In this document: one piece after another, positions 1 through 64,000 of the stretch
Numbering within the stretch: position 1 is the first letter of the stretch
Layout of the letters: each line of letters begins with the position of its first letter
NCBI GenBank assembly: GCA_964457625.1
Contig: CAYWES010000002.1
Coordinates: forward strand, 30,239-94,238
DNA: 64,000 bases
From: an uncultured Candidatus Saccharibacteria bacterium
GTDB taxonomy: Bacteria > Patescibacteriota > Minisyncoccia > Phycocordibacterales > UBA1550
Direction of reading: 5' to 3'
Notes under the pieces: model-generated
What the model was told of the DNA's origin: nothing
The model's database searches: none
The model's input: the letters and a program-made list of their open reading frames with translations, nothing else
Position numbers and translations under genes: made by a program

Positions 1-543
1 ACCGTCGCGCGCGGAGACCTCATCACCGGACAGGGAGCAAGCGCGACGTGGACACGCCTGCCAAAAGGCACGGCAAACCAAGTCCTCAGTATGGATGCGA
101 CGGCGACAGATGTGGTATGGGCAAATCCGCCGGGATATGCTCTTGATGTACAGGCGCACAACTCAGGTCAACCGCTAGATTCATCAAGGTATTTTGGACA
201 GCTTCCGAAGGTACTACAAAGTACCGCGAATATAAGCAAGGTATATATTCCCAAATCGGGGACGATTAAACGAGCCGTTATCTATTCGTACGCAACAGGC
301 ACCGTAGGAACAGCCCAAGATTGGTCGATGTACATTCGTCTTTATGATAAGACAACAGAGACACTTATTCAAGAGACACTTATTCAGACCGTAGGACTTG
401 ACACCGCAGAACGTATTTGGCAAAACGATGCTCTTAATATAGCCGTCAATGCCGGAGATTATTTTGAAATCAGATCATTTCGCGCTGCCTCAGGTACGGC
501 ATCTAACAATATTATTTTTAGCGGTTATGTGTGGATAGAATAA
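1..543 (+). CDS. Hypothetical protein, 5'-truncated by the window edge
   Basis: The frame is open from nt 1 with no upstream stop, so the gene continues left of the window. No recognisable family. Contains an in-frame 15-bp tandem duplication (ETLIQ x2). Confidence 0.4.
   Translation, partial: TVARGDLITGQGASATWTRLPKGTANQVLSMDATATDVVWANPPGYALDVQAHNSGQPLDSSRYFGQLPKVLQSTANISKVYIPKSGTIKRAVIYSYATGTVGTAQDWSMYIRLYDKTTETLIQETLIQTVGLDTAERIWQNDALNIAVNAGDYFEIRSFRAASGTASNNIIFSGYVWIE
358..387 (+). repeat. Perfect in-frame 15-bp tandem duplication (GAGACACTTATTCAA/G x2)
   Basis: gagacacttattcaa gagacacttattcag, encoding ETLIQ-ETLIQ. Confidence 0.9.
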
Positions 544-1637: not shown

Positions 1638-2627
1638 ATGAATTATAGGTACACTTTTTCAATACGAATCGTAGGACTCATCCTCGTTGGGGGAGGACTT
1701 CTCTCCGCGCACGAACTCCTCGCCGGGACACTCTCCTGTACGGTCGCCACGTCATGCCCCTCAGGTACGGTGATGTACCGCATGGCAGATACCGACAACG
1801 CGCACGGAGAGCTCCCCGGTGAATCAAGCTACCCATACCTCGTATGTTGTACCGGGGTCGCGGGTATGGGGAATAGTTGCTCGGGTACGCATGAGACGCT
1901 CCTCAAGCTTTCGAGTCCGACAAACGCCCACGGAGAACTCTCTACGGAAAGTAATTATAGCGAAAACGCGTGCATCTCTGTCCCCGCGGGGGGAAGCGTG
2001 ACGGTAGGATATCAGACAACAAACTGCAACGGCTACGACACGACCGTAGGCTCACTCAATGATACGACCAACGCGCACCTTGGCGACGCGAACGCCTATG
2101 CCATGAAGATTTGCGCGACTGCATACACGCCTCCAGATCATACGCTTACGTTTAGTATTTCCGATAATACGATCGGCTTCGGTACCCTTTCATCAGTAGT
2201 AGCACGCTACGCGACAGGGGATACCCTCGGCGCTTCGTCTGATTCCGCTCCCGCGCACACCATATCAGTCGCAACCAACGCCGACGAAGGATACGCGCTC
2301 ATGATGACGGGGACGACACTCATCTGCGCGGAATGCGGCGACGGCACCATCGCACCGATAGGGGGTACGCCCACCGCTTCCACACCGGGGACTGATCAAT
2401 TCGGCATGCGCGTGACGGTCGCTTCGGGGACGGGGACAGTGAGCGCGCCATACCATACCGCGTCATGGGCATTTGATACAGCGGCGTTTCCTGATATGGT
2501 CGCGACAGGGGCGGGGGATAGCATCACCACCGTATACGAAGCGCGCTATATCGCCAATATTTCCGCGGCGCGCGAACATGGAACATACACGAGTGTCCTC
2601 ACGTATGTCGTAACACCGACGTTTTAA
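1638..2627 (+). CDS. Secreted surface protein, paralog A: Cys-containing NAHGEL repeats followed by the shared C-terminal domain
   Basis: Signal peptide. Three repeats containing NAHGEL/NAHLGD. The C-terminal ~150 aa (LTFSISDNTIGFGTLSSV...YVVTPTF) is paralogous to the C-terminus of ORF 2734-3801. Confidence 0.55.
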   Translation: MNYRYTFSIRIVGLILVGGGLLSAHELLAGTLSCTVATSCPSGTVMYRMADTDNAHGELPGESSYPYLVCCTGVAGMGNSCSGTHETLLKLSSPTNAHGELSTESNYSENACISVPAGGSVTVGYQTTNCNGYDTTVGSLNDTTNAHLGDANAYAMKICATAYTPPDHTLTFSISDNTIGFGTLSSVVARYATGDTLGASSDSAPAHTISVATNADEGYALMMTGTTLICAECGDGTIAPIGGTPTASTPGTDQFGMRVTVASGTGTVSAPYHTASWAFDTAAFPDMVATGAGDSITTVYEARYIANISAAREHGTYTSVLTYVVTPTF

Positions 2628-2733
2628 TACTCCGCATGTGGACAATACGCTTGTCTTTTGTGAGGAGAGTATTATAATAAAAAGATAGGTATCAAGTGCG
2701 CATTTATTTGAATAGTTAATTATTTATACCAAT

Positions 2734-3801
2734 ATGTTACAAAAAGTTCTTTCGAGTATGCGATTTGTGGGCAAAGCCACCGTTCTCGGTGTCTTTAGTA
2801 TCGTTTCGCTTGCTATGCCGTTTAGTTTTGTGAGCGCGGCATCCCTTACCAATCTTTCCAACACGATGTCGTCTGCAAAGATAAGCACCGCATCAAGTCA
2901 TGAGATTAGGTTTACGACACCGACTGGTGCATCGGATGATACCGACACCATCGTGATCACTTTTCCCGCGGACTTTGATTTCACCGGCAAGGACATTGCA
3001 AGCGTTACATTTACCCACGGTCCAGCAACAGGACTTGAAAACACCGAGGTTCTCGCGGCAGCACCATCAGCAACCGAATGGGGCGCGGTATTCTCAGGTA
3101 CTGAGGATCGCGTTCTTACACTCACCGCTCCTACGGACGGCGTCGGGGCGGCATCGCTTGACGCGAACCACAGAGTGATCATCAGCTATGATGACACCGA
3201 TTCTCTCAACCCTTCAACCCCAGGGTCATATCAAATAACCATCAACGGTACGTTTGGTGATGTAGGGTTCATTACCGTAAACATTTTGAGTGATGACCAA
3301 GTTTCTGTGAGCGCAACGGTGGATCAATCCCTCACCTTTAGCATCTCTGACAACACCATCGGCTTTGGCACCCTTTCCTCAGTAGCAGCACGCTATGCGA
3401 CAGGGGATACTACGGGCAGTGCATCAGAAGTGGAGGCGCACAACATTATCGTGGGTACCAACGCTTCAAACGGATACACCATGACACTCGCGGGTGAGAC
3501 CCTCACCTCGGGTCTCGACACCATTGACGCAATCGGTGCAGCCAACACCGCGTCTGCCACAGGGACCGAACAGTTTGGTCTCCGCATGACCGCAACGGAT
3601 GGTATAGGAGCTGTTTCCGCTCCCTATGCTGCCGCAGGATTCGCGTTTGATACCGCCTCCTTTCCTGACGAAGTAGCTTCCTCTGTCGGCGCGAGCGCAG
3701 ACACGACCTACTCCGTACGTTATCTTGCAAACATTGAATCAAACACAGAAGCAGGTGCCTACACCGCGGCTCTTACCTACGTAGCGACCGCAAACTTCTA
3801 A
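2734..3801 (+). CDS. Secreted surface protein, paralog B, carrying the shared C-terminal domain
   Basis: Signal peptide ending VSAAS. The C-terminal domain (LTFSISDNTIGFGTLSSVAARYATGDT...YVATANF) aligns with paralog A; most differences fall at synonymous positions. Confidence 0.55.
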   Translation: MLQKVLSSMRFVGKATVLGVFSIVSLAMPFSFVSAASLTNLSNTMSSAKISTASSHEIRFTTPTGASDDTDTIVITFPADFDFTGKDIASVTFTHGPATGLENTEVLAAAPSATEWGAVFSGTEDRVLTLTAPTDGVGAASLDANHRVIISYDDTDSLNPSTPGSYQITINGTFGDVGFITVNILSDDQVSVSATVDQSLTFSISDNTIGFGTLSSVAARYATGDTTGSASEVEAHNIIVGTNASNGYTMTLAGETLTSGLDTIDAIGAANTASATGTEQFGLRMTATDGIGAVSAPYAAAGFAFDTASFPDEVASSVGASADTTYSVRYLANIESNTEAGAYTAALTYVATANF

Positions 3802-3834
3802 GGTTGATTATTCATTTCGTTTCTTCTTACTCTC

Positions 3835-4815
3835 ATGAACTCTCTTCTCAAGACCTCTCTCTGGGCGATCGCTCTCTTTCTCGGGGGAGGCTTGGGTTCT
3901 GTATCGGCACTCACCATCTCTCCGGCAAAAATAGAAATCACGGGAGATCCGGGAACCACGCTTCATGGAGAGATAAAACTCTACAACGAGCAGACGGGAG
4001 CACGCACCTTCTTTGCTTCGTATGAAAACTTTGAGCCGATCGGAGAAGCGGGAACGCCGTATTTCGTGGGCGGAACAGAGGGTCTCGCGACGTGGATTGA
4101 TACGGAACGAAGTATCACCATCGCTTCGGGAGAAACACAGACAATTCCCTTCACCATCACCATTCCCACGGACGCAACTCCGGGAGGGCACTTCGGTGCA
4201 ATCTTTTGGGGAACTCAGAATCCTGAAAACAGAGGCGGGGGAGAGGTCTCTGTGGGTGCGAAACTCGGCGCACTTGTTCTCTTGAGAGTTTCGGGCGCTA
4301 TTGAGGAAAACGCGGGAATCTTGGACTTTGAAACAAAAGACAAGCAACGCTTTTTCAGTAGCCTTCCTGTGGCGTTTACCTACCGTGTAAACAATGCCGG
4401 CGGTGACCGTATCGTTCCTCGCGGAGACATACAGATCAAAAACTCTGTACGCTTTACCACGAGCAATCTTACTGCAAACAAAACCGAAGGAAACGTCCTT
4501 CCGGGAAGCGCGCGCAGGTTTGAAACCGTATGGGAATCCAAAGGAGAACACACTGAAGGAGGATTTTGGAATGGAGTGGTGCGAGAAGTACGAGATTTCC
4601 GTTTGGGCTGGTATACCGCTACCCTCGATCTTTCTTGGGGCGGAGCTCCGAATCAACGAGATACCTCTACGTACCACTTCTTCATTTTCCCATGGCATTT
4701 ACTCACGATAGTATTCTTGGGCGGTGGAGTACTCCTCTTCCTTGGAGGAAGGGGTCTCAAGAGCTATAACAAGCGCATTATTGGACGCGCACTCGCGCAA
4801 CAACAGAAACAATAG
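3835..4815 (+). CDS. Cell-surface protein with N-terminal signal peptide, beta-rich ectodomain and a C-terminal transmembrane anchor plus basic tail
   Basis: Signal peptide. The ISPAKIEITGDPG...EIKLYNE chaperone/Ig-like pattern. The C-terminal hydrophobic helix (LLTIVFLGGGVLLFLGG) is followed by KSYNKRIIGR. Confidence 0.55.
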   Translation: MNSLLKTSLWAIALFLGGGLGSVSALTISPAKIEITGDPGTTLHGEIKLYNEQTGARTFFASYENFEPIGEAGTPYFVGGTEGLATWIDTERSITIASGETQTIPFTITIPTDATPGGHFGAIFWGTQNPENRGGGEVSVGAKLGALVLLRVSGAIEENAGILDFETKDKQRFFSSLPVAFTYRVNNAGGDRIVPRGDIQIKNSVRFTTSNLTANKTEGNVLPGSARRFETVWESKGEHTEGGFWNGVVREVRDFRLGWYTATLDLSWGGAPNQRDTSTYHFFIFPWHLLTIVFLGGGVLLFLGGRGLKSYNKRIIGRALAQQQKQ

Positions 4816-4816
4816 T

Positions 4817-5863
4817 GTGGCACGCTTTTTGGCAAAGCTTGTTTTGTCGTTCCTGTGTTTCTTTATTTTTCCGATTGCCACGTCCGCGATGACAATCACG
4901 GTCTCTGCGCTTGTCCCCGGATGTGGAGATGGGATTAAAGGAGTGGGGGAGCAGTGTGATGGTACGGACTTTGGTGGTGCGTCATGCTCAACATATGGCT
5001 TTTCAGGGGGAACGATCTCGTGCAGTAGTGCGTGTACGGTGGTCACCAATGCATGTACGGCTCCTCCCGGTGGCGGAGGTGGAGGCGGTGGGGGCGGAGG
5101 AGGAGGTGGTGTAGTGTTTATCCCCTCAAGCAATGTCGTTACCACGGGCCTTGCCTTCCCGGGGGCGATTGTGAAGCTTCTCAAGGATGGTCAGCTCATG
5201 GCTACTACGGTCGCGGGGAGTGACGCGGGCTTCTCGCTCACCATCAGTAATGTCTCTACGGGTACGTATAATTTCTCGGTTGTCGCGGAAGACACGACCG
5301 GTCTCCATACGCCCATCTTCACCTTTCCGCTTTCTATCGTCTCGTCGACGACTACAAAGGTTGACGACCTCTTTCTTGCGCCCACCATCTTTCTTGATAA
5401 AACTCAAGTAAAGTACGGTGACGCGCTTATTGTGTCGGGAAAGACCGTACCCCATGCCGTAGTAACCATACAAATACAATCGCCCGCGGTCTCTACGCTG
5501 ACGATATCGTCAAATGCTCTGGGCGTATACGCGCACTCTCTCAATACGAGTCCGTTTGGACTCGGGCAACACAGTGTCGTCGTGAGCGCGACAAAAGACG
5601 AGCTCACGAGTAAGCCGTCCAGCACCAAAACATTTCTCATCGGTACGGAAAACGTGTTTGCGGATGTTCCGCAGGTCTCCTTTCTCAAAGGAGACCTCAA
5701 CAATGATGGACGGGTGAATCTCACGGACTTTTCTATTGCGGCATTTTGGTATCGAAAGCCTCTTACCGAAGCGTTTAAGGTCGTTGAATTTGAGCGCCTC
5801 AACGGTGATGGTGCCATCACGCTCGTAGACTTCAGTATTATGGCGTTTTATTGGACGGGGTAG
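4817..5863 (+). CDS. Secreted protein with a Cys-rich repeat, a poly-Gly linker, Ig-like domains and a C-terminal type-I dockerin
   Basis: GTG start immediately after the upstream stop, followed by a signal peptide (cleavage at ATSA|MT). The CGDGxxxxxEQCDG motif resembles myxococcal Cys-rich repeats. G14 linker. The C-terminus GDLNNDGRVNLTDFSI...LNGDGAITLVDFSI has a duplicated DxNxDGxVNxxD calcium-binding pattern. Confidence 0.6.
   Translation: MARFLAKLVLSFLCFFIFPIATSAMTITVSALVPGCGDGIKGVGEQCDGTDFGGASCSTYGFSGGTISCSSACTVVTNACTAPPGGGGGGGGGGGGGGVVFIPSSNVVTTGLAFPGAIVKLLKDGQLMATTVAGSDAGFSLTISNVSTGTYNFSVVAEDTTGLHTPIFTFPLSIVSSTTTKVDDLFLAPTIFLDKTQVKYGDALIVSGKTVPHAVVTIQIQSPAVSTLTISSNALGVYAHSLNTSPFGLGQHSVVVSATKDELTSKPSSTKTFLIGTENVFADVPQVSFLKGDLNNDGRVNLTDFSIAAFWYRKPLTEAFKVVEFERLNGDGAITLVDFSIMAFYWTG
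5684..5860 (+). repeat. Dockerin-coding segment, copy 1 of a dispersed direct repeat
   Basis: 177 bp aligning without gaps to 8573-8749. The 3' ~75 bp differ at a single position. Confidence 0.85.
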
Positions 5864-5884: not shown

Positions 5885-8755
5885 ATGAACTTGTGGTATA
5901 ATATCTTCGTGAACACGATGAAAAGAAGTTTTTTGTTAATCAAACTATTCTCAATCGGATTTGTCTTTTCCCTTGCGTGGGCATTTTTTGTGTCCCCCAA
6001 CCTCTTTGCCGCGGGGGAGAGCTATACGGTGTGTCCCGTTGGTTGTGATTTTCTTACCTTAACGGACGCGCTTCTTGAGCCCGGAATCGGGGATGATACG
6101 ATTATCCTTACGGAAGACTATGTGTTTGTTGATCTTGATGAACAAGATAGCCTCAGTATCCCCGACGGTATTGCTATTGTGTGTGCTCCCGGGGCGGGGA
6201 AGCTGGGAGGAGCGACGGATACCGTGCTCATGTTTTTTGGTGGAGAGAATACTTCGTTTGAAGGATGCACGTTTGAAAATGTACAATTTGATATTTCGGG
6301 GAAATCGGGTTTCTCGTTTACGCATAATACATTTTCCCCTGACGCGCTGAGTGTCATGATACTCACCCACGCGACGGATGTGACTATTACGGACAATATT
6401 GATATTCAAAAAATCCAAATTCAGACCGCGGATGATGTGCTCATTGAAAATAATTCCTTCGCGTGTCGCTTTGAAAGTACCTGCCTTAATGCCGTCACTG
6501 CCGGGGCACCTGATCTTTCTGATGATGCGGACATCAGCAACAATCTCATCATTAGAAACAACACTATTGTTAATCACAAAAAAGACAATGGTGGTGATTG
6601 GGTGCATTTTTGGGGAGGACGAGATATTGAATTTACCGGCAATACGGTGTATTCAGCGGTGACGCTTGATGAGAATATCTATCTGACGGTCGTTACGGTG
6701 ACCGGCGCGCAGATTGAATTTCGCGACAATTTCATTATTACGCCGGAGAAAGACGGCGCGCAAACGAGCGCGACGTGGGCGTTCAATCTTCGTGTCCAGG
6801 AGTACGCCATTGATGTTCTCTTTGATCACAATACCATCCTCCATCGCAATACAATGTCGGGGGCTGATGGGAATGCGTGTTTCGGACTCTATGATCAAGG
6901 GGGCAACCCAAATCTCTCCGTTACGATAACCGCCACATACAATCTTTGTCACCAGGTGGGAACAACTCAGCGGGGGAGGGGTATTTATTTTTCTTACGAC
7001 ATAGGGAGCGTTAATCCTTCGTTGAATGATTCTTGGAATGGATTTTCAAATATTGCTACTCCAATTAGTGATGATGAGGGTATTATCACGACACTTGATG
7101 GAACTACGGTACTGCGCAACGCACTCTTGCGTCTCGAGGACCCGGACCCAAGCAACCACGGTATTCCAAACCCCGTAAGTACGTATCTTGATGTTAACGG
7201 CACCAATGATATTGGGGCGTGGAGTGGTGCTCGCGTTACAACGATTCTCGTAGACGATGGATGCGTTGTTGATTACACTACCTGCCATGGCAATGGGACA
7301 GATTTTCTTCGTCATGCTTTGCGTGATGGAGATACGGCATACCTTGCCGATGGTATATATAGCCCTGTGGTGATACAAGGGTTTGATAATATCTCTCTTG
7401 TTGGGTCTTCGGGTACGATTATTGATGCTTTGGGTGGCGGGTTTGGTTTGGTCCTTGAGAATATTTCCAATAGCTCGTTTCAAGGTATTCGCGTTGAGCA
7501 AGCATCCAGCACATCAACCACGCATACGATTACCATGCCGGGGCTCTCTATGGGAGGGACTGATTACACTGCGTTTCCCGGGTTTATTCTTTTGGGTAAC
7601 GACTGCAATGTGGACAATCTCCTCCTCCCCTCAACGCCGACTGATATATCAGGAGTCACGGGGGTTGGTACCGAGGATTTTGTACTTATGCTTATACACT
7701 TACCTCCGGGGATAGTTGACCCTGACAATGATGCCTATATCACCGCACTTGTGCGAACGAGCCTCATATCGGTCCCGGGGGATTTGACGACACTCTGCGG
7801 TATGCCAGAAAGCTTCATTGATGTATTCCTGAATCCAGGCTTTTCTCTGTCGGACGGAGTATATAATTTTAATGCTACTGATTTTACTGACGAAGGAATC
7901 ACAACAGTCGGTGGCGCTCCACTTCCTTCAATAACAACAGTCACACTCGACGGTATCGGACTCATTCTTGATAATGTAAGCAATACCACCTTTACGGATT
8001 TTGTTTCTACTGACAGTCGCAAGGGGGTAATCGTCCAAGGGGGAAGTGATGGGAATACATTTATTGATAGTGACCTCACGGGAAATACCACTGCTGATAT
8101 TCATAGTATAAGTACGGGGGATACCATATTGCATCAGACGCTTTTTACGCTCGCGAACACGCTCATTGATGATTCCGGAATCATTATTGTCTCTCAAGAC
8201 ATGCAAGTCCACGTCGAAGATTCACAGGGAGCTCCGCTTTCGGGAGCGCAGGTTACGTTTACTGACAAATCTTCCAACGTGACGGGGCCGCTCACGACCG
8301 ATGGAGCCGGGGATATTCCCATCACTTCCATTCCGCTCTACTTTTTGAATCAAGCAAACCCCACGAATCCTCTCGCTAACACCAACAATCCATATCAGGT
8401 GAGTGTGACGAAGGCTGGATATACTCCAAAGACCACGGGAGTCACCATTACCTCGGGAGTTCAGCTTCTCACGGTCGTTCTCGCTACGCAACCTTCTTCG
8501 GGTGGTACGACAACAGGGGGTGGCGGAGGGGTTTTCATTCCGGCACCGGTTGTTCCCGAACCTACGAGCTTCCTCAAAGGAGACCTCAATAATGACGGAC
8601 TTGTAAATCTCATAGACTTCTCCATCGCGGCGTTTTGGTATCGAAAATCTCTCAGTGACGCATTCAAAGTCGTGGAACTTGAACGTCTCAACGGTGATGG
8701 TGCCATCACGCTCGTAGACTTCAGTATCATGGCGTTTTATTGGACAAAGTCATAA
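5885..8755 (+). CDS. Large secreted parallel beta-helix protein with a CarboxypepD_reg-like domain and a C-terminal type-I dockerin
   Basis: N-terminal signal/anchor. Many NxS/T and IxxN repeats typical of right-handed beta-helix (PbH1) proteins. A VHVEDSQGAPLSGAQVTF...TKAGYTPK domain. Gly linker, then a dockerin nearly identical to that of 4817-5863. Confidence 0.65.
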   Translation: MNLWYNIFVNTMKRSFLLIKLFSIGFVFSLAWAFFVSPNLFAAGESYTVCPVGCDFLTLTDALLEPGIGDDTIILTEDYVFVDLDEQDSLSIPDGIAIVCAPGAGKLGGATDTVLMFFGGENTSFEGCTFENVQFDISGKSGFSFTHNTFSPDALSVMILTHATDVTITDNIDIQKIQIQTADDVLIENNSFACRFESTCLNAVTAGAPDLSDDADISNNLIIRNNTIVNHKKDNGGDWVHFWGGRDIEFTGNTVYSAVTLDENIYLTVVTVTGAQIEFRDNFIITPEKDGAQTSATWAFNLRVQEYAIDVLFDHNTILHRNTMSGADGNACFGLYDQGGNPNLSVTITATYNLCHQVGTTQRGRGIYFSYDIGSVNPSLNDSWNGFSNIATPISDDEGIITTLDGTTVLRNALLRLEDPDPSNHGIPNPVSTYLDVNGTNDIGAWSGARVTTILVDDGCVVDYTTCHGNGTDFLRHALRDGDTAYLADGIYSPVVIQGFDNISLVGSSGTIIDALGGGFGLVLENISNSSFQGIRVEQASSTSTTHTITMPGLSMGGTDYTAFPGFILLGNDCNVDNLLLPSTPTDISGVTGVGTEDFVLMLIHLPPGIVDPDNDAYITALVRTSLISVPGDLTTLCGMPESFIDVFLNPGFSLSDGVYNFNATDFTDEGITTVGGAPLPSITTVTLDGIGLILDNVSNTTFTDFVSTDSRKGVIVQGGSDGNTFIDSDLTGNTTADIHSISTGDTILHQTLFTLANTLIDDSGIIIVSQDMQVHVEDSQGAPLSGAQVTFTDKSSNVTGPLTTDGAGDIPITSIPLYFLNQANPTNPLANTNNPYQVSVTKAGYTPKTTGVTITSGVQLLTVVLATQPSSGGTTTGGGGGVFIPAPVVPEPTSFLKGDLNNDGLVNLIDFSIAAFWYRKSLSDAFKVVELERLNGDGAITLVDFSIMAFYWTKS
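8573..8749 (+). repeat. Dockerin-coding segment, copy 2 of a dispersed direct repeat
   Basis: See copy 1. About 83% identity overall, with a mosaic distribution of differences. Confidence 0.85.
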
Positions 8756-8764
8756 TGTACAACC

Positions 8765-9613
8765 ATGCGCATAATTAACACCGTATTCCTCATAGCATTT
8801 CTTTTCCCCGCATGGGCGCAGGCACTGGAGGTACGCCTTGAGACGCAGAAGGCATCTTTTCACAAAGGAGAACTCATCACGGTGGATGTATTTCTCGATG
8901 CCACGGATCCCGTAAATGTAATCTCGGCAAAACTCATATACCCGGAGAGACATCTTTCTTTGGGCGGGATCGTCGACGGAAGTTCGGCGGTTTCTCTTTG
9001 GATTGATCGACCAAAACGCACAAGCTCCGGGGAAATCTCGTTTTCCGGCATGACGCCCGGGGGGATTGAGGGGAAAGAGAACAAGGTGTTTTCTGCCACA
9101 TTTGTCGCGGATCGACCGGGAGACGTGGCGTTTGGTTTGATACAAGGGGAAGCGTTTCTTCATGATGGGCTTGGCTCCGCCCATCCTTTCGAGACGTCTC
9201 TCTCTATTTCTATCGATGCAGGAGAATCTTTGTCTCCGGAGGAAGGTACCTTCCTCGACACTATTCCTCCTGAGGATTTTTTCGTAACGCTTTCCCATGA
9301 TCCAAACCTTTTTGGAGGGAAATACTTCCTTGTGTTTACGACACAAGATAAAGAGTCAGGGATTGATCACTATAAAGTGCGTGAGGGTCGCTGGGGATTC
9401 TTCCGCACTGCGGAGAGCCCGTACCTTTTGCGCGATCAATCACCCACACATAGTATCAGCGTAAAAGCAGTAGATCGATTTGGTAATGAGCGCGTGGCGG
9501 TGTTTCATCCCGAACAGACTTCTTCATTGTGGGATGACATAAAAGGTCTTGTCGTGGTAGTATTACTAGTAAGCATAACAGGTATTATCCTATGGCGCAG
9601 ATATACAAAATAA
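8765..9613 (+). CDS. Membrane-anchored protein with a cohesin-like N-domain
   Basis: Signal peptide with AxA cleavage (AWAQA|LEV). The N-domain pattern EVRLETQKASFHKGELITVDVFLDATDPVNVISAKLIYPERHL matches a cohesin-type beta-sandwich. A second Ig/FN3-like domain, then a C-terminal TM helix and RRYTK tail. Confidence 0.5.
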   Translation: MRIINTVFLIAFLFPAWAQALEVRLETQKASFHKGELITVDVFLDATDPVNVISAKLIYPERHLSLGGIVDGSSAVSLWIDRPKRTSSGEISFSGMTPGGIEGKENKVFSATFVADRPGDVAFGLIQGEAFLHDGLGSAHPFETSLSISIDAGESLSPEEGTFLDTIPPEDFFVTLSHDPNLFGGKYFLVFTTQDKESGIDHYKVREGRWGFFRTAESPYLLRDQSPTHSISVKAVDRFGNERVAVFHPEQTSSLWDDIKGLVVVVLLVSITGIILWRRYTK

Positions 9614-9615
9614 TA

Positions 9616-10395
9616 ATGATAACGGGAGCGTTGTTCTTTGCTCCCCATGTGACGTTCGCGGCAAGCCTCTTCCTTTCTCCTGCTTCGGGAGTGCATGACG
9701 TCGGCACCACCTTTTCCGTCGTGGTTTCTGTGGGAAGTCCTTCTCAAGATATGAATGCCACATCGGGGGTCATTTCATTCCCCGTGGACGCACTTGAGGT
9801 TGTCTCGATATCTCGCACGAATTCAATCATCTCATTTTGGGTGCAAGAGCCTACTTTTTCAAACACGCAAGGTTCTATTTCTTTTGAAGGCGTCGCTCTC
9901 GATCAATCCTTCAGAGGTTCAAATGGGAGAATCTTTTCGGTAGTCTTTCGCGCAAAACAAGCAGGTACGGCAGGGGTGAGTTTCTCCTCGGGTTCGGTCT
10001 TGGCAAGTGACGGATTGGGGACGAACATTTTACAAACACTCTCTCCCGGCTCCTACGCCCTTGCGGTCCCTAAGCCACCAGTAGAACCTCCTCGCAGAGA
10101 AGAGCCAATCGTGGAGGAGCCTCTTGTAGAAACTCCAGAAGAGATTCCGGAAGAAACGCCTCCTTTGGTGGAAGAGATAGTGATTCCGGAGGAACCGGCA
10201 ATCTCAGAATACTTTATAGAACGAGCGCCTTGGTATCGTTTGGAAGTTCCCGTTTCAGTGGGTCTTCTCACGATAATCTTGCTTATCCTTCTCATCTCAA
10301 TCACCTTAAATGTCGTGTTTGGTTCCCACTACACGGCGCGAACGATTCATCATGTGAGAAAGAGACGCGTACGAACTCCGAAGAAGGACATCTAA
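9616..10395 (+). CDS. Membrane-anchored protein with a cohesin-like domain and a Pro/Glu-rich linker
   Basis: Signal peptide. LSPASGVHDVGTTFSVVVSV...ATSGVISFPVDALEVVSI closely matches a cohesin domain. A (P/E)-rich stalk, then a C-terminal TM helix and basic tail. Confidence 0.55.
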   Translation: MITGALFFAPHVTFAASLFLSPASGVHDVGTTFSVVVSVGSPSQDMNATSGVISFPVDALEVVSISRTNSIISFWVQEPTFSNTQGSISFEGVALDQSFRGSNGRIFSVVFRAKQAGTAGVSFSSGSVLASDGLGTNILQTLSPGSYALAVPKPPVEPPRREEPIVEEPLVETPEEIPEETPPLVEEIVIPEEPAISEYFIERAPWYRLEVPVSVGLLTIILLILLISITLNVVFGSHYTARTIHHVRKRRVRTPKKDI

Positions 10396-30170: not shown

Positions 30171-31001
30171 ATGATCGTAGGATTTTTAGGAAAAGGAGGA
30201 TCAGGCAAGTCGACATTGAGTTCGTTCTTTGCAAAACACGCCCATGCGAAAGGGGCTCGCGTGCTTGCGCTTGATGCTGATCACAATATGGACCTCACCT
30301 ACAACCTTCATGGCAAGGAGCTTTCTGCGTATATTGGGCAAGGGCTTCAGGATGTTCTCACTCATGCGGGAGTTACTCAGTATCGAGATGTGTTTGACCT
30401 TGAGACACCGCCCGTATTTTCTTTGAGTCCCCGCGACCCTGTGACGGAGCGCTATACGCACGATATACAGGAGGGGCTCAGCATCATGTGCGCCGGTCCT
30501 CATACGGACAACATCCTCTATGATGATGCGTGTAGTCACTCTCTCGTGACACCGCTCAAAGTCTATCTCCCGCACCTCGTTCTCAATGAGAATGAACTTG
30601 TCGTGGTGGATGAAAAAGCCGGGACAGACAGCGTGGGGACAGGAGTCACCACCGGGTTTACGCTTGCGGTGGTTGTGGCGGAGCCTACGCCTCACGGTAT
30701 CAAAGCCGCTTCTCAGATTAGTGAGCTTCTCTCATTTTATGAAACTCCGCATGTGTTTGTATTAAACAAGGTTCGTGGAGATAAGGATCGCGCGTTGTTT
30801 GAAGAAATCATGGGACGCCTTCCTGACTACGAGGCTCCGTTTGCCGAGGAGGCATCGCGTATTGATGGCGAGGTTCCTTCATTCTATGCGCAAATCTTTG
30901 ATGATATTCATGCGCGTGCAAAGGAGGTTCCCGATGCGCGCCTTGAACGCTCAAAACAAAAGATTGAGAAGAATAAAAAATTCAAAGCAGACAAAGCATA
31001 A
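30171..31001 (+). CDS. P-loop ATPase, CooC/MinD/ParA-like
   Basis: Deviant Walker A motif (GKGGSGKST). Lies 14 nt downstream of fur and is probably co-transcribed. Confidence 0.6.
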   Translation: MIVGFLGKGGSGKSTLSSFFAKHAHAKGARVLALDADHNMDLTYNLHGKELSAYIGQGLQDVLTHAGVTQYRDVFDLETPPVFSLSPRDPVTERYTHDIQEGLSIMCAGPHTDNILYDDACSHSLVTPLKVYLPHLVLNENELVVVDEKAGTDSVGTGVTTGFTLAVVVAEPTPHGIKAASQISELLSFYETPHVFVLNKVRGDKDRALFEEIMGRLPDYEAPFAEEASRIDGEVPSFYAQIFDDIHARAKEVPDARLERSKQKIEKNKKFKADKA

Positions 31002-33242: not shown

Positions 33243-34607
33243 GTGTATAATGGGCGAAGCGATATGCGTCACGATATTCACGTTTGGATTATTGTAGGAT
33301 TGGTCATTCTCGGAGGAGCGGGATTTTATGTGTTGAAGTTTCAGCAGTCGCCGACGAGCTACGCGTATACCTTTTTCACCGAGCAGGGGGAGAATGAGAA
33401 AGAGCCGTTTCAGTATGGTGAGCGCACGACACTTTCCAATCCTGATTTTTACGAAGCGACACGGCAGGAGCTGATTCAGGAGAATATTGATTTTATTGAG
33501 GCGAACCTTTCGCTCATGGTGCTGAGGGTATATCAAGAAGGAGCCGTCACGCTTGAGGTCCCTATTCTCAGCAAAGGGCGCAAAGGTTCGTGGTGGGAGA
33601 CTCCGGCAGGGCTCTACAAGGTTGAATACAAGAGCAGAGACCATGCGTCTTCGTTTAGCCCTGTTCGTACGCCGTGGAACATTCAGTTTCAGGGAAATTT
33701 CTTTATCCACGGATGGCCCTCGTATGTTTCAAACGGACAGCCCGTAGACAGCACGTTTTCCGGTGGGTGTATTCGTCTTTCCAGCGAGGATGCTCAAAAG
33801 GTATACAACCTCGCCCTCCTCGGCATGCCCGTTCTCGTCTTTGAAGAAATCTCCGACGACACATACTCATATATACCTACGGTGCCTAATCTTTCCGCAA
33901 CGCAGTATCTCGCGGCAGACCTCAAAAATAATTATGTGTTTCTTGAAAAAGATTCCACAGCCGTCCATTCGTTTTCTCTGGTTACAAAATTTCTCACTGC
34001 GCTCGTCGTCACAGATCACACCAATATTGATAAGCTCATCACCGTCCCTCCTCAAGCACTCGTGCCCACCTGGAAGCCTCGCCTCATCCCCGGAGAGCGC
34101 TACAGTATCTATCAGCTTCTTTTCCCGCTTTTGATTGAGTCCTCAAACGAATCAGCACAGACGCTCGCATATGAGATAGGGGAGGAGCGTTTTGTGAATC
34201 TCATCAATCGCAAAGCGCAGGCGATAGGAATGTCTCATGCCGTTTTCGTGGATGCGTCGGGCGTTTCTCAGGAAAACAAAGGCACGCTGGAGGATGTGTT
34301 TAATCTCTCTCAATATCTCTACAACTATCGCAAGTTTATTTTGAATTTGAGTATTAATGTCGTTGATAACGGAGCATATGAGCCTGCCCTCTGGAAAGGA
34401 CTGGAGGTCTCAACACTCAGCACCATCCCCGGGTATGTGGGCGGGGTTGCGGGAGTGACCGAGGGAGGAAAGCAAGTCGGGTTTGCTGTCGTGGAGATTT
34501 CTTTTGGGGAAGTCGTGCGTCCCATTGTGGTCATTGCTTCAGGAAGTGCGGATGTTCTCAACGACCTTCGTAATATGATTGGATACGTCAGAGGGACGTA
34601 TCGGTAA
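33243..34607 (+). CDS. L,D-transpeptidase (YkuD) domain fused to a PBP5-like D-Ala-D-Ala carboxypeptidase domain
   Basis: N-terminal TM. YkuD catalytic motif HGWPSY...GGCIRL. The C-terminal domain carries an SxN-like motif (LIESSNESAQTLAYEIG) and an SLVTK segment. Confidence 0.75.
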   Translation: MYNGRSDMRHDIHVWIIVGLVILGGAGFYVLKFQQSPTSYAYTFFTEQGENEKEPFQYGERTTLSNPDFYEATRQELIQENIDFIEANLSLMVLRVYQEGAVTLEVPILSKGRKGSWWETPAGLYKVEYKSRDHASSFSPVRTPWNIQFQGNFFIHGWPSYVSNGQPVDSTFSGGCIRLSSEDAQKVYNLALLGMPVLVFEEISDDTYSYIPTVPNLSATQYLAADLKNNYVFLEKDSTAVHSFSLVTKFLTALVVTDHTNIDKLITVPPQALVPTWKPRLIPGERYSIYQLLFPLLIESSNESAQTLAYEIGEERFVNLINRKAQAIGMSHAVFVDASGVSQENKGTLEDVFNLSQYLYNYRKFILNLSINVVDNGAYEPALWKGLEVSTLSTIPGYVGGVAGVTEGGKQVGFAVVEISFGEVVRPIVVIASGSADVLNDLRNMIGYVRGTYR

Positions 34608-37677: not shown

Positions 37678-40050
37678 ATGAACATCCCCATTTCCTACAA
37701 CTGGCTCAAATCTCATTTTGAGAAAGAGATCCCTTCTCCCGAGGAGATTTCGCGTCTTTTTATGCTACACCTCTGCGAGGTTGAAGGTATGGAGAAAAAA
37801 GGGAGCGACACGATTTTTGATCTCAAGATTCTCCCTGATCGTGGGCATGATCTCCTCGCACATCGCGGGATTGCGCGCGAGGTCTCAGTGCTCGCGGGTA
37901 TCCCACTCCGCCCTCTTCCGAGCGCTCCCGATGTACGCGGTGTCACTACTCCTCTCCGCGTGACGGTAGAGGATTCTCAGAGGTGTCCGCGCTACATGGG
38001 GCGTGTTATTTCCGGTATTACGGTGGGAGAATCTCCCACATGGCTCAAAGAGCGCCTTGAGTCCGTCGGACAGCGTTCAATCAATACTATTGTTGATGTC
38101 ACAAACTTCGTCATGCTTGAGCTCGGACAGCCGATGCACGCATTTGATGGAAGCAATATTGAAAAGCGTGATGGTGCATATGAGATTGCCGTGCGCGGGG
38201 CGCAAGAAGGTGAGACCATGACTACACTTGATGGAAAAAATCTTGTCCTTACATCCGACACGCTTGTGATTGCGGATTCCGCTCGCGTGCTCGCGCTTGC
38301 GGGGATCAAAGGGGGGAAGGCGGCGGAGGTTGGGTCTTCTGCAGACACGATCATTCTTGAGTCGGCAAACTTCAATGCCGTAACCACCCGTCGTACGAGC
38401 GCGCGTGTAGGTATTCGTACTGATTCATCAAAGCGCTTTGAACATGAGCTTTCGCCCGCGCTCGCCGAGCAGGCGATGGATCTTGCAAGCGCACTCATCC
38501 TCGAGCTTTGTCCTCGTGCAGAGCTGGGGGAAGTGGTGGATGTTTGCGCTCAGTCGCCAAAGCAGTACAAGGTTGGTATTTCTCTTTCGGAGCTGAACGG
38601 GATTTTAGGCTCATCGTTTGAGAAAAAAGAAGTAGAAGACCTTCTCATGCGGATTGGTTTTGAATACACTGTCGTACCTAATCCTCTTCAATTTGTACTC
38701 GCAGAGGCACCAAAGCAAGCAGGGAAAGCATATCGCCTTGATGCAAGCGTTCTCCATGATGCGCCCGAAACATTTGATTGCTCAAGTTTGGTGGCGTACC
38801 TTTGGAAAGAAGCGGGAGTCTCCCTACCGCGCATGTCGGTGGATCAGATGGTGTTTGGAGATCCTGTCGAAGAATCAGACATGAAGCCGAGCGATTTGGT
38901 ATTTTCAAACAGTGAAGAAGGTGCGATTTTTTATGAATCACAGGAATGGATGCCCGGGACGCCCGTACCCGAAGGCATTGATCATGTGGGAATCTACCTC
39001 GGTGATGACAAAATCATTCACGCATCACGCTACAACGAACACGGCGTTGAGATACAGACTCTTTCAGGTAACCCAATCTTTAAAAAAATCGTAGGGATTC
39101 GTCGTGTCGCTCATGCTGATGAAGAGCGTTTTGTGATTACTATTCCCCTTGAGCGCCTGGACTTGCGTATCAAAGAAGATATTGCAGAGGAGATTGGTCG
39201 CGTGTACGGATTTCATAATATCCCTCCCGCACCGCTTCCTGAGCTTTCTTTTATCCCGAGCCATCTCAAGGCATACTACTACGCGGGCAAGATTCGCGAT
39301 GCACTCGTCACCGCAGGGTTCTCAGAAGTCTTTACCTATTCGTTCCAAAACACAGGCGCATTTGCCGTGGAAAATCCGATAGCAGAGGACAAGGGCTTCT
39401 TGAGAAAAGACCTCGCCACGGGAATCCGCGACGCACTCGTGATGAACGCGCGTCATGCACCCCTTCTCGCACGGGATGACATCAAGATTTTTGAAATAGG
39501 AGCCGTGTACCCCGGAGTAATGGAAGAAAAGCTCTCCTGTGCTATCGGCGTGGAGCTCACCAAGCAGGGAAAGAAAAAAACCGAGCTCACGCGTGCTGAG
39601 CTTGAGAATGCGCAAAAGATAGTGAGTGAAGTACTCGGCGTATCGTTGGATGGGGTATTTACCGAAAACACGTTTGAGTTTGAGTTCGGCGCGCTTCTCG
39701 CGAATCTGCCTGAGATACCTCCTCAGGAGAAAGGATTTGTTTCCGCAGACACGCGCTACACAAAAATCTCCGCGTATCCCTTTGTCCTCCGCGATATTGC
39801 TCTCTGGGTACCTGAGCACGTCTCAAGCGATGACATTGTGACGCTCATTCGGGAGGAGGGAAGCGAGCTCCTCAAAGTGGTGCGCCTCTTTGATGTGTTT
39901 ACCAAGGAATTCCCCGAAGGCAAAAAGACCTCCTATGCATTTAATTTGGTCTTTCAGTCACACGAAAAAACACTCTCCGATGATGAGGTAAACGCTATCA
40001 TGGAGCGCGTCACGCATCGTCTCACCGCCAAAGAATACACCGTGCGCTAA
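37678..40050 (+). CDS. pheT: Phenylalanyl-tRNA synthetase beta subunit with an inserted NlpC/P60-like domain
   Basis: B1, B3/B4, B5, B6/7 and C-terminal FDX-ACB-like regions are recognisable. Residues ~345-476 match NlpC/P60 (DCSSLVAYLW...PSDLVFS...HVGIYLGDDKIIHAS). Confidence 0.9.
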   Translation: MNIPISYNWLKSHFEKEIPSPEEISRLFMLHLCEVEGMEKKGSDTIFDLKILPDRGHDLLAHRGIAREVSVLAGIPLRPLPSAPDVRGVTTPLRVTVEDSQRCPRYMGRVISGITVGESPTWLKERLESVGQRSINTIVDVTNFVMLELGQPMHAFDGSNIEKRDGAYEIAVRGAQEGETMTTLDGKNLVLTSDTLVIADSARVLALAGIKGGKAAEVGSSADTIILESANFNAVTTRRTSARVGIRTDSSKRFEHELSPALAEQAMDLASALILELCPRAELGEVVDVCAQSPKQYKVGISLSELNGILGSSFEKKEVEDLLMRIGFEYTVVPNPLQFVLAEAPKQAGKAYRLDASVLHDAPETFDCSSLVAYLWKEAGVSLPRMSVDQMVFGDPVEESDMKPSDLVFSNSEEGAIFYESQEWMPGTPVPEGIDHVGIYLGDDKIIHASRYNEHGVEIQTLSGNPIFKKIVGIRRVAHADEERFVITIPLERLDLRIKEDIAEEIGRVYGFHNIPPAPLPELSFIPSHLKAYYYAGKIRDALVTAGFSEVFTYSFQNTGAFAVENPIAEDKGFLRKDLATGIRDALVMNARHAPLLARDDIKIFEIGAVYPGVMEEKLSCAIGVELTKQGKKKTELTRAELENAQKIVSEVLGVSLDGVFTENTFEFEFGALLANLPEIPPQEKGFVSADTRYTKISAYPFVLRDIALWVPEHVSSDDIVTLIREEGSELLKVVRLFDVFTKEFPEGKKTSYAFNLVFQSHEKTLSDDEVNAIMERVTHRLTAKEYTVR

Positions 40051-63232: not shown

Positions 63233-64000
63233 ATGAACAGCATCCTCATCGAAAAAATCAAGAAAGAAATCGAAGCATTAAACACGAGTACGACCGTTGA
63301 GCGTATTGGCACGGTGGTTGCTTCGGGTGACGGTATTGCCGAGATTGAGGGCCTTGATGATGCGCGCATGGCGGAGATGGTTGTCTTTGAGGATGATGCG
63401 AAAGGGTCTCTTGAGGATGCGCTTGACCACGCTCCTATTGTGGGATTTGTCCTCAACCTTGAGGAGAATTTTGTAAAAGCGGTTTTGCTTTCCGGAGCAG
63501 ATCGCGTGCATGAGGGGATGACCGTGAAAGCATTGGGAAAGACGCTCTCTATCCCTGTTTCCAAAGAAATGATTGGTCGCGTGGTAAACGCGCTCGGAGA
63601 GCCTATTGACGGCAAAGGCGCACTCCCCGAAGAAGACAGACTCCCTGTGGAGCGTATTGCGTTTGGTGTGATTGATCGTTCGGGAGTTGATACTCCTCTC
63701 CATACAGGGATTAAGGCGATTGACTCTATGATTCCCGTTGGTCGTGGACAACGCGAGCTTATCATTGGAGACCGTGGTACCGGCAAGACATCTATTGCAC
63801 TCGACACGATTTTAAATCAGGTTAGTGAACCCGAAGAAACCCGTCCTATTTGTATCTATGTTGCGATTGGTCAAAAAGAATCAAAAATCGCACGTATCGT
63901 TGCTGAGCTCACCGAGCGTGGAGCGATGGATTATTCTGTCGTTGTGGTCGCGGGAGCTTCGGAGCCTGCCGCGATGCAATATCTCGCGCCGTTTACGGGG
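63233..64000 (+). CDS. atpA: ATP synthase F1 subunit alpha (3'-truncated by the window edge)
   Basis: N-terminal beta-barrel and Walker A GDRGTGKT. The ORF runs off the window end. Confidence 0.9.
   Translation, partial: MNSILIEKIKKEIEALNTSTTVERIGTVVASGDGIAEIEGLDDARMAEMVVFEDDAKGSLEDALDHAPIVGFVLNLEENFVKAVLLSGADRVHEGMTVKALGKTLSIPVSKEMIGRVVNALGEPIDGKGALPEEDRLPVERIAFGVIDRSGVDTPLHTGIKAIDSMIPVGRGQRELIIGDRGTGKTSIALDTILNQVSEPEETRPICIYVAIGQKESKIARIVAELTERGAMDYSVVVVAGASEPAAMQYLAPFTG

Follow-up and report, generated by a model that had tools for sequence, protein, structure and literature searches.

A probable Pam-type pilus operon with a candidate dockerin–cohesin tether in a Yonathbacteria-like Parcubacterium

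What do the secreted proteins encoded near the beginning of this stretch of DNA build, and how might the product be held at the cell surface? The window, that is, the whole 64,000-nucleotide stretch analysed (positions 30,239 to 94,238 of contig CAYWES010000002.1), carries on its + strand, between positions 1638 and 10395, the genes for two paralogous secreted proteins (pilin 1 and pilin 2), a membrane-anchored chaperone, two dockerin-bearing proteins (dock1 and dock2) and two cohesin-like paralogues (coh1 and coh2). The original prediction, made from the letters alone, had placed the first three open reading frames (ORFs) at 1638–2627, 2734–3801 and 3835–4815, where all three are indeed found on the + strand; it called the C-terminal domain shared by the first two unassigned, and the pilus went unrecognised. 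The reading preferred here, with a probability of about 0.68, is that of a pilus operon of the Pam type, belonging to a Yonathbacteria-like Parcubacterium and equipped with a dockerin–cohesin variant of the tether.

Pam filaments were described from Ca. Mycosynbacter amalyticus, where cryo-electron microscopy (cryo-EM) identified PamA and PamB (Troman et al., bioRxiv 10.64898/2026.03.03.709456). Both are two-domain pilins, and the linker of each subunit supplies a strand to the neighbour, whose C-terminal domain is open. The published operon further encodes PamC/D, transmembrane-anchored, FimC/PapD-like chaperones with two immunoglobulin (Ig) domains; PamT, a tip consisting of the C-terminal domain only; and PamR, an RbmA-like, transmembrane-anchored terminator that inserts its N-terminal strand. 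ATP synthase genes and a tail-fibre-like gene lie in the neighbourhood, and the pili are easily detached (Troman et al., same preprint). The Pam pilus, published and modelled in 2026, is known already; the lineage and the arrangement are new here. Also new, all of it in silico, are a predicted shaft-specific strand that separates tip from shaft proteins and recurs on the cap protein and the chaperone, a dockerin–cohesin (or transmembrane) tether with its covariation, and the WxLIP relationship of the chaperone.

Two pilins with a shared C-terminal domain

Pilin 1 (1638–2627, +) consists of a signal peptide, a Cys-rich N-terminal domain and the Pam pilin C-terminal domain (nt 2139–2624); pilin 2 (2734–3801, +) consists of a signal peptide, an N-terminal beta-sandwich, a linker and the same C-terminal domain. 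For pilin 2, a start at 2758 is likelier than one at 2734 (the database copy of the protein has 347 amino acids, aa). The two proteins align with 43% identity over 278 aa (BLASTP, E=1e-57), the signal coming from a C-terminal block of about 160 aa with 57% aa identity across 160 aligned codons. The block opens with (Q/H)(S/T)LTFSISDNTIGFGTL, at nt 2139/2145 in pilin 1 and 3325/3331 in pilin 2, and ends at the last codon, within a few bases of the limits first proposed (2146–2624 and 3334–3798). Differences at codon positions 1, 2 and 3 number 47, 43 and 110, and the aligned codons hold 57 synonymous and 67 non-synonymous differences; this pattern points to old paralogues under purifying selection, as the third-position bias had already suggested. 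The N-terminal halves, described from the start as unrelated, have no significant mutual similarity (tblastn E 0.01–0.02): pilin 1 carries three NAH-G(E/D) repeats (residues 54, 96 and 145) and 10 Cys, and pilin 2 has neither the repeat nor any cysteine. The pilin 1 N-terminal domain has a weak match to a PHROG ‘tail protein’ family (E 0.0023). Pilins 1 and 2 are the only copies of the shared domain found by tblastn in the 64 kb.

Pfam assigns no family to either pilin at E<=1. Against NCBIfam release 20, both pass NF058581 (CPR_Pam_pilin_C, ‘Pam pilus system pilin subunit’; CPR, candidate phyla radiation), pilin 1 with 67.9 and pilin 2 with 85.2 bits at a cut-off of 55, and 7 of 10 diverse family members pass it as well. 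Since the shared domain passes this model and has a transmembrane-anchored chaperone as its partner, the operon can be assigned to the Pam type. Topology, called from hydropathy and AxA-type cleavage motifs, agrees with the secretion originally proposed: every operon product has an N-terminal signal-like segment, and only the chaperone, coh1 and coh2 have C-terminal transmembrane helices. AlphaFold2 (AF2) gives pilin 2 about ten strands between residues 39 and 185, then an unstructured segment (188–197) and the C-terminal domain, at a moderate mean confidence (predicted local distance difference test, pLDDT, 74.6). Foldseek against the PDB returns generic Ig-like adhesin folds for the pilin model (SdrE/G, Cna, BslA and TTHA1873), with no Pam, WxL, TasA or chaperone-usher pilin among the top 50. 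A PDB sequence search with the pilin and chaperone profiles gave nothing at E<=10, PamA and PamB not being among the entries searched.

Comparison with a related set of 38 species-representative genomes or loci (labelled L001–L039) separates the two pilins by type. In the position of pilin 1, other genomes encode proteins of 289–1681 aa with unrelated N-termini; pilin 2 orthologues have about 350 aa. Directly ahead of QSLTFSISDNTIGFGTL, every shaft-type (pilin 2) orthologue has the motif DDQVxVxAT-V. The tip-type proteins are variable and share sequence only from QSLTFSIS on; the QVxVxATV motif is missing from all of them, pilin 1 included, where the segment ahead of LTFSIS is KICATAYTPPDH. 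In pilin 2 itself the motif reads QVSVSATV (residues 189–196, nt 3298–3321, +). Q189, V190, A194 and V196 are at least 90% conserved and the intervening positions vary, as expected where one face of a strand is buried; in the monomer model the segment has pLDDT <50. Behind it lies the most conserved block, LTFSISDNTIGFGTL (pilin 2 residues 200–214, nt 3331–3375, +; pilin 1, nt 2145–2189), the first strand of the shared module, which is common to tip and shaft types. AF2 models this region as a single 17-residue strand (199–215), just ahead of the NF058581 match, which begins at residue 222 in pilin 2.

From this pattern, QVSVSATV is probably the strand that pilin 2 donates, and LTFSISDNTIGFGTL (LTFSIS...) would be the acceptor edge strand. 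A similar motif recurs at the mature N-terminus of dock1 and in a loop of the chaperone. Pilin 1-type proteins, having no donor strand, could only accept one and would thus sit at the tip, like FimH or PapG, the two-domain tip adhesins of chaperone-usher pili that lack a donor strand. Pilin 1 is accordingly cast as a putative tip adhesin and pilin 2 as the likely major shaft pilin. With both an acceptor domain and a candidate donor strand, pilin 2 is likely to polymerise head to tail. In the proposed assembly, all operon products would be exported by Sec, pilin 1 would stand at the distal tip, its Cys-rich N-terminal domain with the three repeats serving as an adhesin, and donor-strand exchange between pilin 2 subunits, from linker strand to acceptor domain, would form the shaft.

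The observations behind the Pam-type reading concern domain family membership, folds, topology, synteny, motif placement and dockerin/cohesin covariation. Like the published system, the window combines a C-terminal pilin domain of the Pam family, above its cut-off, with a two-domain pilin and linker, Sec export of all parts, a two-Ig chaperone with a transmembrane helix at its C-terminus and no usher, a terminator with an N-terminal strand, a tail-fibre-like gene nearby and a restriction to CPR bacteria. Unlike it, the window comes from Parcubacteria and not from Saccharimonadia or Microgenomatia (Ca. Mycosynbacter amalyticus, of the Saccharimonadia, belongs to a different phylum-level lineage); its operon has one chaperone where Pam has two, and one conserved shaft pilin; and the putative tip is a variable N-terminal domain joined to the C-terminal domain, not the C-terminal-domain-only PamT.

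Several points weigh against a Pam-type pilus here. The Parcubacterial filament is a prediction, the support being monomer models and sequence patterns; the pilin C-terminal domain is modelled with moderate confidence, low at 268–273 and 296–310; and the chaperone matches no NCBIfam model. The conserved LTFSISDNTIGFGTL strand, which adjoins the start of the NF058581 match, could itself be the donated linker, in which case the split between tip and shaft needs another explanation. There is no PamT equivalent (NF058579 38.6 and 50.3 bits at a cut-off of 240), nor did tblastn find a C-terminal-domain-only gene in the window. There is also no RbmA-like, transmembrane-anchored PamR: dock1 bears a strand but ends in a dockerin, and two transmembrane cohesins accompany it. 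ATP synthase genes are not adjacent, and none was found in L001–L039 (tblastn with E. coli AtpA, AtpD and AtpG). Short database proteins considered as PamT equivalents were rejected as fragments, having no signal peptides and starting mid-domain. The sole ATP synthase match in the window is the start of an alpha-subunit gene at 63233–64000 (+), about 53 kb from the pilus operon.

Chaperone-usher systems (Fim, Pap, CFA/I and Csu) share with this operon the logic of donor-strand complementation and exchange, a polymerising shaft, a terminator subunit, a two-domain tip adhesin without donor strand and a chaperone fold resembling CfaA and CsuC. The window system differs in having no usher and no outer membrane, in its membrane-anchored chaperone, and in a donor strand that is internal (in the linker) rather than an N-terminal extension. 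No usher-like gene is found in the operon (ORF list and Pfam), and the pilin C-terminal domain reaches only 0.6% against FimA in hhalign.

Dock1, the cohesins and a candidate tether

Dock1 (4817–5863, +) is composed of a signal peptide, the strand TITVSALV (nt 4892–4915), a Cys-rich module, a run of 14 glycines, an Ig domain and a C-terminal dockerin (nt 5693–5860). The gene starts at 4817, not at 4724, according to the gene call in L001, which is the same organism in another assembly, identical to the window across the 5800 bases compared. Big_6 and Dockerin_1 both lie above the Pfam cut-offs (dockerin PF00404, 23.7 vs 22.9 bits), and duplicated Ca-binding repeats are visible in most orthologue dockerins. 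The other modules are Cys-rich, Gly-rich and Ig-like, with no catalytic domain in Pfam. The 14 glycine codons (5069–5110, +) give rise to a spurious antisense ORF containing a poly-proline run (4699–5184, −), and many orthologues have similar Gly tracts where the window has its Cys-rich module.

When the dock1 orthologues are scored with a position-specific scoring matrix (PSSM) of the shaft linker, the best match lies directly after the signal-peptide cleavage site in 34 of 36, with strands such as ITVEITATV, DVNISATV and EIISVSATV. Scores have a median of 9.5 bits, where the 95th percentile of the background is 3.1. By analogy, this N-terminal strand parallels the inserted strand of PamR and that of TapA in Bacillus fibres.

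Two further genes encode the candidate partners: coh1 (8765–9613, +), with a signal peptide, a cohesin-like domain, an Ig-like domain and a transmembrane helix (residues 258–279), and coh2 (9592–10395, +), with a signal peptide, a cohesin domain, a Pro/Glu-rich linker and a transmembrane helix (217–246). Their families align at 100% probability in hhalign (E 5e-41), which marks them as paralogues, probably of the cohesin type; both have predicted C-terminal transmembrane helices. Among orthologues, the Pfam Cohesin model matches 11 of 22 coh2 proteins (best E 7.5e-9) and 4 of 21 coh1 proteins (best E 7.7e-6).

Dock1 would thus enter the assembly with a copy of the donor strand and no acceptor domain: it would cap the base of the filament, and its dockerin would bind transmembrane-anchored coh1 and coh2 and so tether the pilus to the membrane, standing in for PamR. 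Dock1 is the probable cap and a candidate tether. The chances that a dockerin–cohesin pair really tethers the pilus, judged from these sequence patterns, appear about even. As a use of the module, a pilus tether would be a role not previously known; the literature search found no paper tying dockerin or cohesin to CPR pili.

The competing explanation is that the dockerin and cohesin proteins form a separate, co-transcribed display, a minimal cellulosome-like scaffold for which dock1 is cargo, the pilus being anchored otherwise or released. Dockerin–cohesin pairs normally display enzymes, and the window contains an obvious cargo in dock2 (5885–8755, +), a 956-aa beta-helix protein with a Beta_helix Pfam match, a CarboxypepD_reg-like domain and a C-terminal dockerin (nt 8582–8752) nearly the same as that of dock1. 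Dock2 has no donor strand (PSSM score −9.4). It occurs only in this genome, inserted between dock1 and coh1, and other loci match only its dockerin, which at 18.3 bits falls below the PF00404 cut-off. The last ~75 nt of the two dockerins are nearly identical in DNA, which suggests recent duplication or gene conversion between them; dock1 and dock2 bear the only dockerins in the window. The easy detachment of the published Pam pili also suits a pilus without a firm tether, as do the loci that have neither cohesins nor an anchor, and the motif at the dock1 N-terminus is a short one, with modest scores in many orthologues.

Gene order, covariation and strand placement favour the tether. Tip-type gene, shaft gene, chaperone, dock1, coh1 and coh2 keep their order in about 30 of 38 species, dock1, coh1 and coh2 directly after the chaperone, so that the dockerin and cohesin genes count as core operon members. 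The roughly 10-kb surface-protein island of the original prediction therefore stands as regards these genes and fails as regards its implied variability among strains, being a conserved operon. Dockerin and cohesins occur together in about 28 loci and are both missing in 7 assessable ones, each with 6 kb or more of sequence downstream, with no truly discordant locus (Fisher p = 9e-7, uncorrected for relatedness). In L005 and L016, which lack dockerin and cohesins, the dock1 orthologue ends in a transmembrane helix of its own; L005 and L010 have closely related pilins and opposite tether types. This replacement, exactly where the cohesins are missing, fits a tether better than a cargo. The donor-like strand, moreover, always stands at the dock1 mature N-terminus in the same register, dockerin-less orthologues included, and dock1 has no catalytic domain. 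A separate scaffold is therefore judged unlikely, and dock2 is best seen as a second, genome-specific cargo that would bind the same cohesins.

The tether is itself not free of difficulties. The strand of the window dock1 scores 3.8 bits, and no more than 16 of 36 orthologues score above the 99th percentile of the background. In the window, the Cohesin model (PF00963) gives coh2 20.6 bits, below its cut-off of 24.1, and does not match coh1. Five dockerin-less loci also stand out: the dock1-like proteins of L007–9 and L014 are short and have no transmembrane helix (Kyte–Doolittle hydropathy, KD, 0.35–0.45), and the short one of L013 has a C-terminus of weak hydrophobicity (KD 1.59). Downstream sequence was inspected in L007 and L014, where nothing anchor-like follows and the operon ends, so a tether is not universal.

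Cellulosomal type-I pairs resemble the window proteins in the duplicated Ca-binding dockerin repeats at the extreme C-terminus and in partners with probable cohesin domains. They differ in two respects: the cohesins here are single-domain and transmembrane-anchored, and the conserved dockerin bearer is a non-enzyme with a pilin-type donor strand.

The membrane-anchored chaperone and its WxLIP relationship

The chaperone (3835–4815, +) has a signal peptide, Ig-like domains at residues 26–152 and 161–284, and a transmembrane helix at 287–305 (nt 4693–4749), with a hydropathy peak of 2.27 at residue 289. The AF2 model (pLDDT 90) contains two beta-sandwich domains and a long C-terminal helix (287–325), in keeping with the signal peptide, beta domain and C-terminal anchor already seen in this chaperone-like protein. 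The analogy first drawn with DUF916/DUF3324 proteins also holds up. The top Foldseek hits in the PDB are Enterococcus faecium WxLIP structures, 9i25_C (WxLIP in complex with a long WxL protein) and 9i1y (E about 1e-10, template-modelling score 0.45–0.47), followed by RbmA, CfaA and CsuC. Alignments of WxLIP and WxL proteins were built from plasmid WxL clusters of Enterococcus, Melissococcus and Lactiplantibacillus; with these, hhalign matches the chaperone family to WxLIP at 83.4% (E 8.5e-6) over 202 colinear columns spanning both domains, with a score of 48.6 against 16.8 +/- 3.4 (max 29.3) for block-shuffled controls (z about 9.4). WxLIP_PGBD is the commonest sub-threshold Pfam match, in 15 of 47 chaperone family members. 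PF06030 (DUF916) reaches 18.8 bits on the chaperone, below its gathering threshold of 27.3, and PF11797 (DUF3324) never matched the window chaperone or the 47 family members. The best-supported relationship of the chaperone is to Firmicute WxLIP (DUF916/DUF3324), as a remote homologue. A relation by sequence to PapD/FimC was discarded: hhalign gives 0.1% against FimC, and no PapD Pfam model (PF00345, PF02753) matches.

A loop and strand of the chaperone, NPENRGGG-EVSVGAKL-GALVLLRV (residues 129–152, nt 4219–4290, +), is the candidate for the strand lent to the pilin groove. The model is least confident in this block (pLDDT 66), for which the family consensus is GGGxVSIGGKIGVLVLLRV; many orthologues have QVSVGAK(V/I/L) in the loop, mimicking the pilin strand. 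The same segment aligns with GLSIKNEYSYVVAL of WxLIP. In the proposed assembly, the anchored chaperone would hold newly exported subunits by lending EVSVGAKL-GALVLLRV to their incomplete Ig-like C-terminal domain. WxLIP has likewise been proposed to bind and stabilise WxL proteins, completing the WxL domain via an inserted hairpin strand (Hassan et al. 2023, PMC10599100).

The WxLIP relationship invites a further explanation, WxL-like display without polymerisation, in which the module would be an attachment tag and the WxLIP-like protein would hold surface proteins singly, completing their fold. The homology of the partner and its proposed strand insertion speak for it. So does the placement of the module: an exhaustive phmmer search with the 160-aa module found 661 cluster representatives (50% identity), 362 of them at E<=1e-10, and in all 150 of those listed the match lies at or within a few residues of the C-terminal end, on proteins of 146 to 3243 aa with diverse N-termini, as in WxL proteins. 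Gene order is also similar, with several clients and then WxLIP. WxL clusters of Lactobacillales and the CPR operon have in common a partner of the same architecture, domain order and transmembrane helix; a proposed insertion of a strand into an incomplete client domain; and clients that share a C-terminal domain under variable N-termini and precede the partner. They differ in that the CPR operon has no LPXTG or sortase genes and its client domain is not detectably WxL (dual Trp-x-Leu). WxL proteins, moreover, are thought to sit on peptidoglycan and not to polymerise.

Against single display stands the domain itself, which passes the Pam pilin model and whose family includes members seen as filaments by cryo-EM. 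Pilin 2 is also unusually conserved for a passenger: among its 1260 homologues, the best 120 are 62–76% identical over the full length across lineages. Display alone would leave the shaft-specific strand, and its recurrence on dock1 and the chaperone, unexplained, and the client domain has no significant similarity to WxL domains. Single display is consequently regarded as quite improbable, and the polymerising, Pam-type pilus is retained.

A WxL identity for the pilin C-terminal domain was examined and found unsupported: hhalign gives 0.3% for the full length and 3.3% for the domain only, no Pfam model matches, and the local score of 21.4 is no better than block-shuffled controls (14.0 +/- 2.9, max 21.7). 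Look-alike motifs can be picked out by eye (LSLSVDNTNLSFG vs LTFSISDNTIGFG; GT.AGWSL vs GTEQFGL; YTTTLTW.L vs YTAALTYVA); these are a lead, not a result. In enterococcal plasmid WxL clusters (L040, 1–5457; L043, 1688–6235), WxLIP comes after several WxL proteins, some of them small and others large, the large ones having MucBP or other N-terminal domains; a class A sortase and an LPXTG protein sometimes follow WxLIP.

A TasA/camelysin-type matrix fibre is the remaining alternative, and there is next to no chance of it. In its favour, FSISDNTIGFGTL looks like the (F)S.....N.F..GTL pattern found where TasA and camelysin have their N-terminal donor strand; donor-strand exchange also builds TasA fibres, and their accessory protein TapA starts with a donor-like segment (PMC9674648). 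Against it, no Pfam or NCBIfam model of that family matches (Peptidase_M73 and the SipW-cognate signal model are absent at E<=1), hhalign against TasA gives 0.2% and aligns a stretch of the pilin family elsewhere than the motif, TasA structures (5of1, 8aur) lie outside the top 50 folds, and the motif here is internal, after a Sec signal peptide and a whole N-terminal domain. The likeness noted in the original prediction thus fails as homology. The TasA segment to which that prediction pointed is the TasA donor strand itself, residues 28–47 (PMC9674648), so the resemblance may be called mechanistic and analogous rather than homologous. TasA/TapA of Bacillus subtilis remains a useful parallel as a donor-strand fibre of a monoderm without an usher, its TapA N-terminus comparable with that of dock1; it differs in the N-terminal position of the TasA strand and in the lack of detectable homology or fold match to the window pilins.

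Distribution, neighbouring genes and biological meaning

The window is chromosomal, carrying DnaE, GyrB, FtsZ, SMC, RNase R, ThrRS and HisRS. Its GyrB is nearest (~82%) to Candidatus Yonathbacteria and other Parcubacteria, which points to a Yonathbacteria-like Parcubacterium as the source. The chaperone has 383 homologues, and the named lineages with homologues of the system are Kaiser-, Taylor-, Nomura-, Harrison-, Magasanik-, Uhr- and Falkowbacteria. A few metagenome-assembled genomes with homologues are labelled Syntrophomonadaceae, Gammaproteobacteria or Saccharibacteria; their loci look Parcubacteria-like, so these labels are probably binning or naming artefacts and not an occurrence outside Parcubacteria. 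Some loci contain a second, divergent pilin–chaperone pair (L028, 6314–8364; L035, 12178–15264), 33–34% identical to the window in the C-terminal domain and 24–25% in the chaperone, an arrangement reminiscent of PamC and PamD, the two chaperones in the published operon.

Upstream of pilin 1 lie two further features. The 3' part of u390, a tail-fibre-like secreted protein of 390 aa, occupies 1–543 (+), the gene beginning upstream of the window; a paralogue of 392 aa (u392) stands just ahead of it, and both full genes are found at 4304–6709 of L001. Signal peptides are present in both proteins, as are NGGTG/QGGTG motifs that call phage tail fibres to mind; 9 other loci also have homologues upstream of their operon, and neither protein matches a Pfam, NCBIfam or PHROG family. 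Between u390 and pilin 1, p367 (531–1634, +; 367 aa) carries a hydrophobic segment at its N-terminus, is secreted or N-terminally anchored, and combines a beta-rich domain with an extremely acidic tail rich in Glu, Asp and Ser; none of the 38 related loci has a homologue, and neither Pfam nor NCBIfam gives a match. A putative promoter, TTGTCT-16-TATAAT (2651–2678, +), sits in the 106-nt gap ahead of pilin 2; as a consensus match it is the best sigma-70-like site in the first 12 kb (10/12). Elsewhere in the window, an NlpC/P60 peptidase domain (E 3e-16, residues 363–476) is apparently inserted between the B3_4 and B5 domains of a phenylalanyl-tRNA synthetase beta subunit (37678–40050, +), which also has an FDX-ACB domain, and a 454-aa protein (33243–34607, +) joins a YkuD L,D-transpeptidase domain and a Peptidase_S11 D-Ala-D-Ala carboxypeptidase domain.

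A broader proposal links two claims: the Pam machinery and the Firmicute WxL/WxLIP clusters might be branches of one ancient monoderm system, with the base of the Parcubacterial pilus held by a dockerin–cohesin pair. This joint proposal is put forward tentatively and is more doubtful than the tether taken singly; the preprint (10.64898/2026.03.03.709456) makes no mention of WxL, dockerin or cohesin. If it is true, both systems use a transmembrane-anchored two-Ig protein that completes, by strand insertion, the shared C-terminal module of many surface proteins; WxL loci may also perform strand exchange; and the nearest relatives of the Pam machinery would be found in Gram-positive bacteria and not among chaperone-usher pili. 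It would also be the first use of dockerin–cohesin as a non-covalent pilus tether, interchangeable with a fused transmembrane helix.

CPR bacteria, which account for much of the diversity of bacteria, live in attachment to other cells. The 2026 description of the Pam pilus came from a single cultured species of Saccharimonadia; the window shows a well-conserved relative of that operon in Parcubacteria and allied lineages and suggests a simple, testable parts list of tip, shaft, chaperone, cap and tether. The WxLIP link gives both fields a tractable relative, as WxLIP–WxL complexes are already in the PDB. If the tether is real, it extends the known uses of the dockerin–cohesin module. The variable tip proteins, up to several thousand residues built on one conserved module, are natural candidates for the determinants of host recognition.

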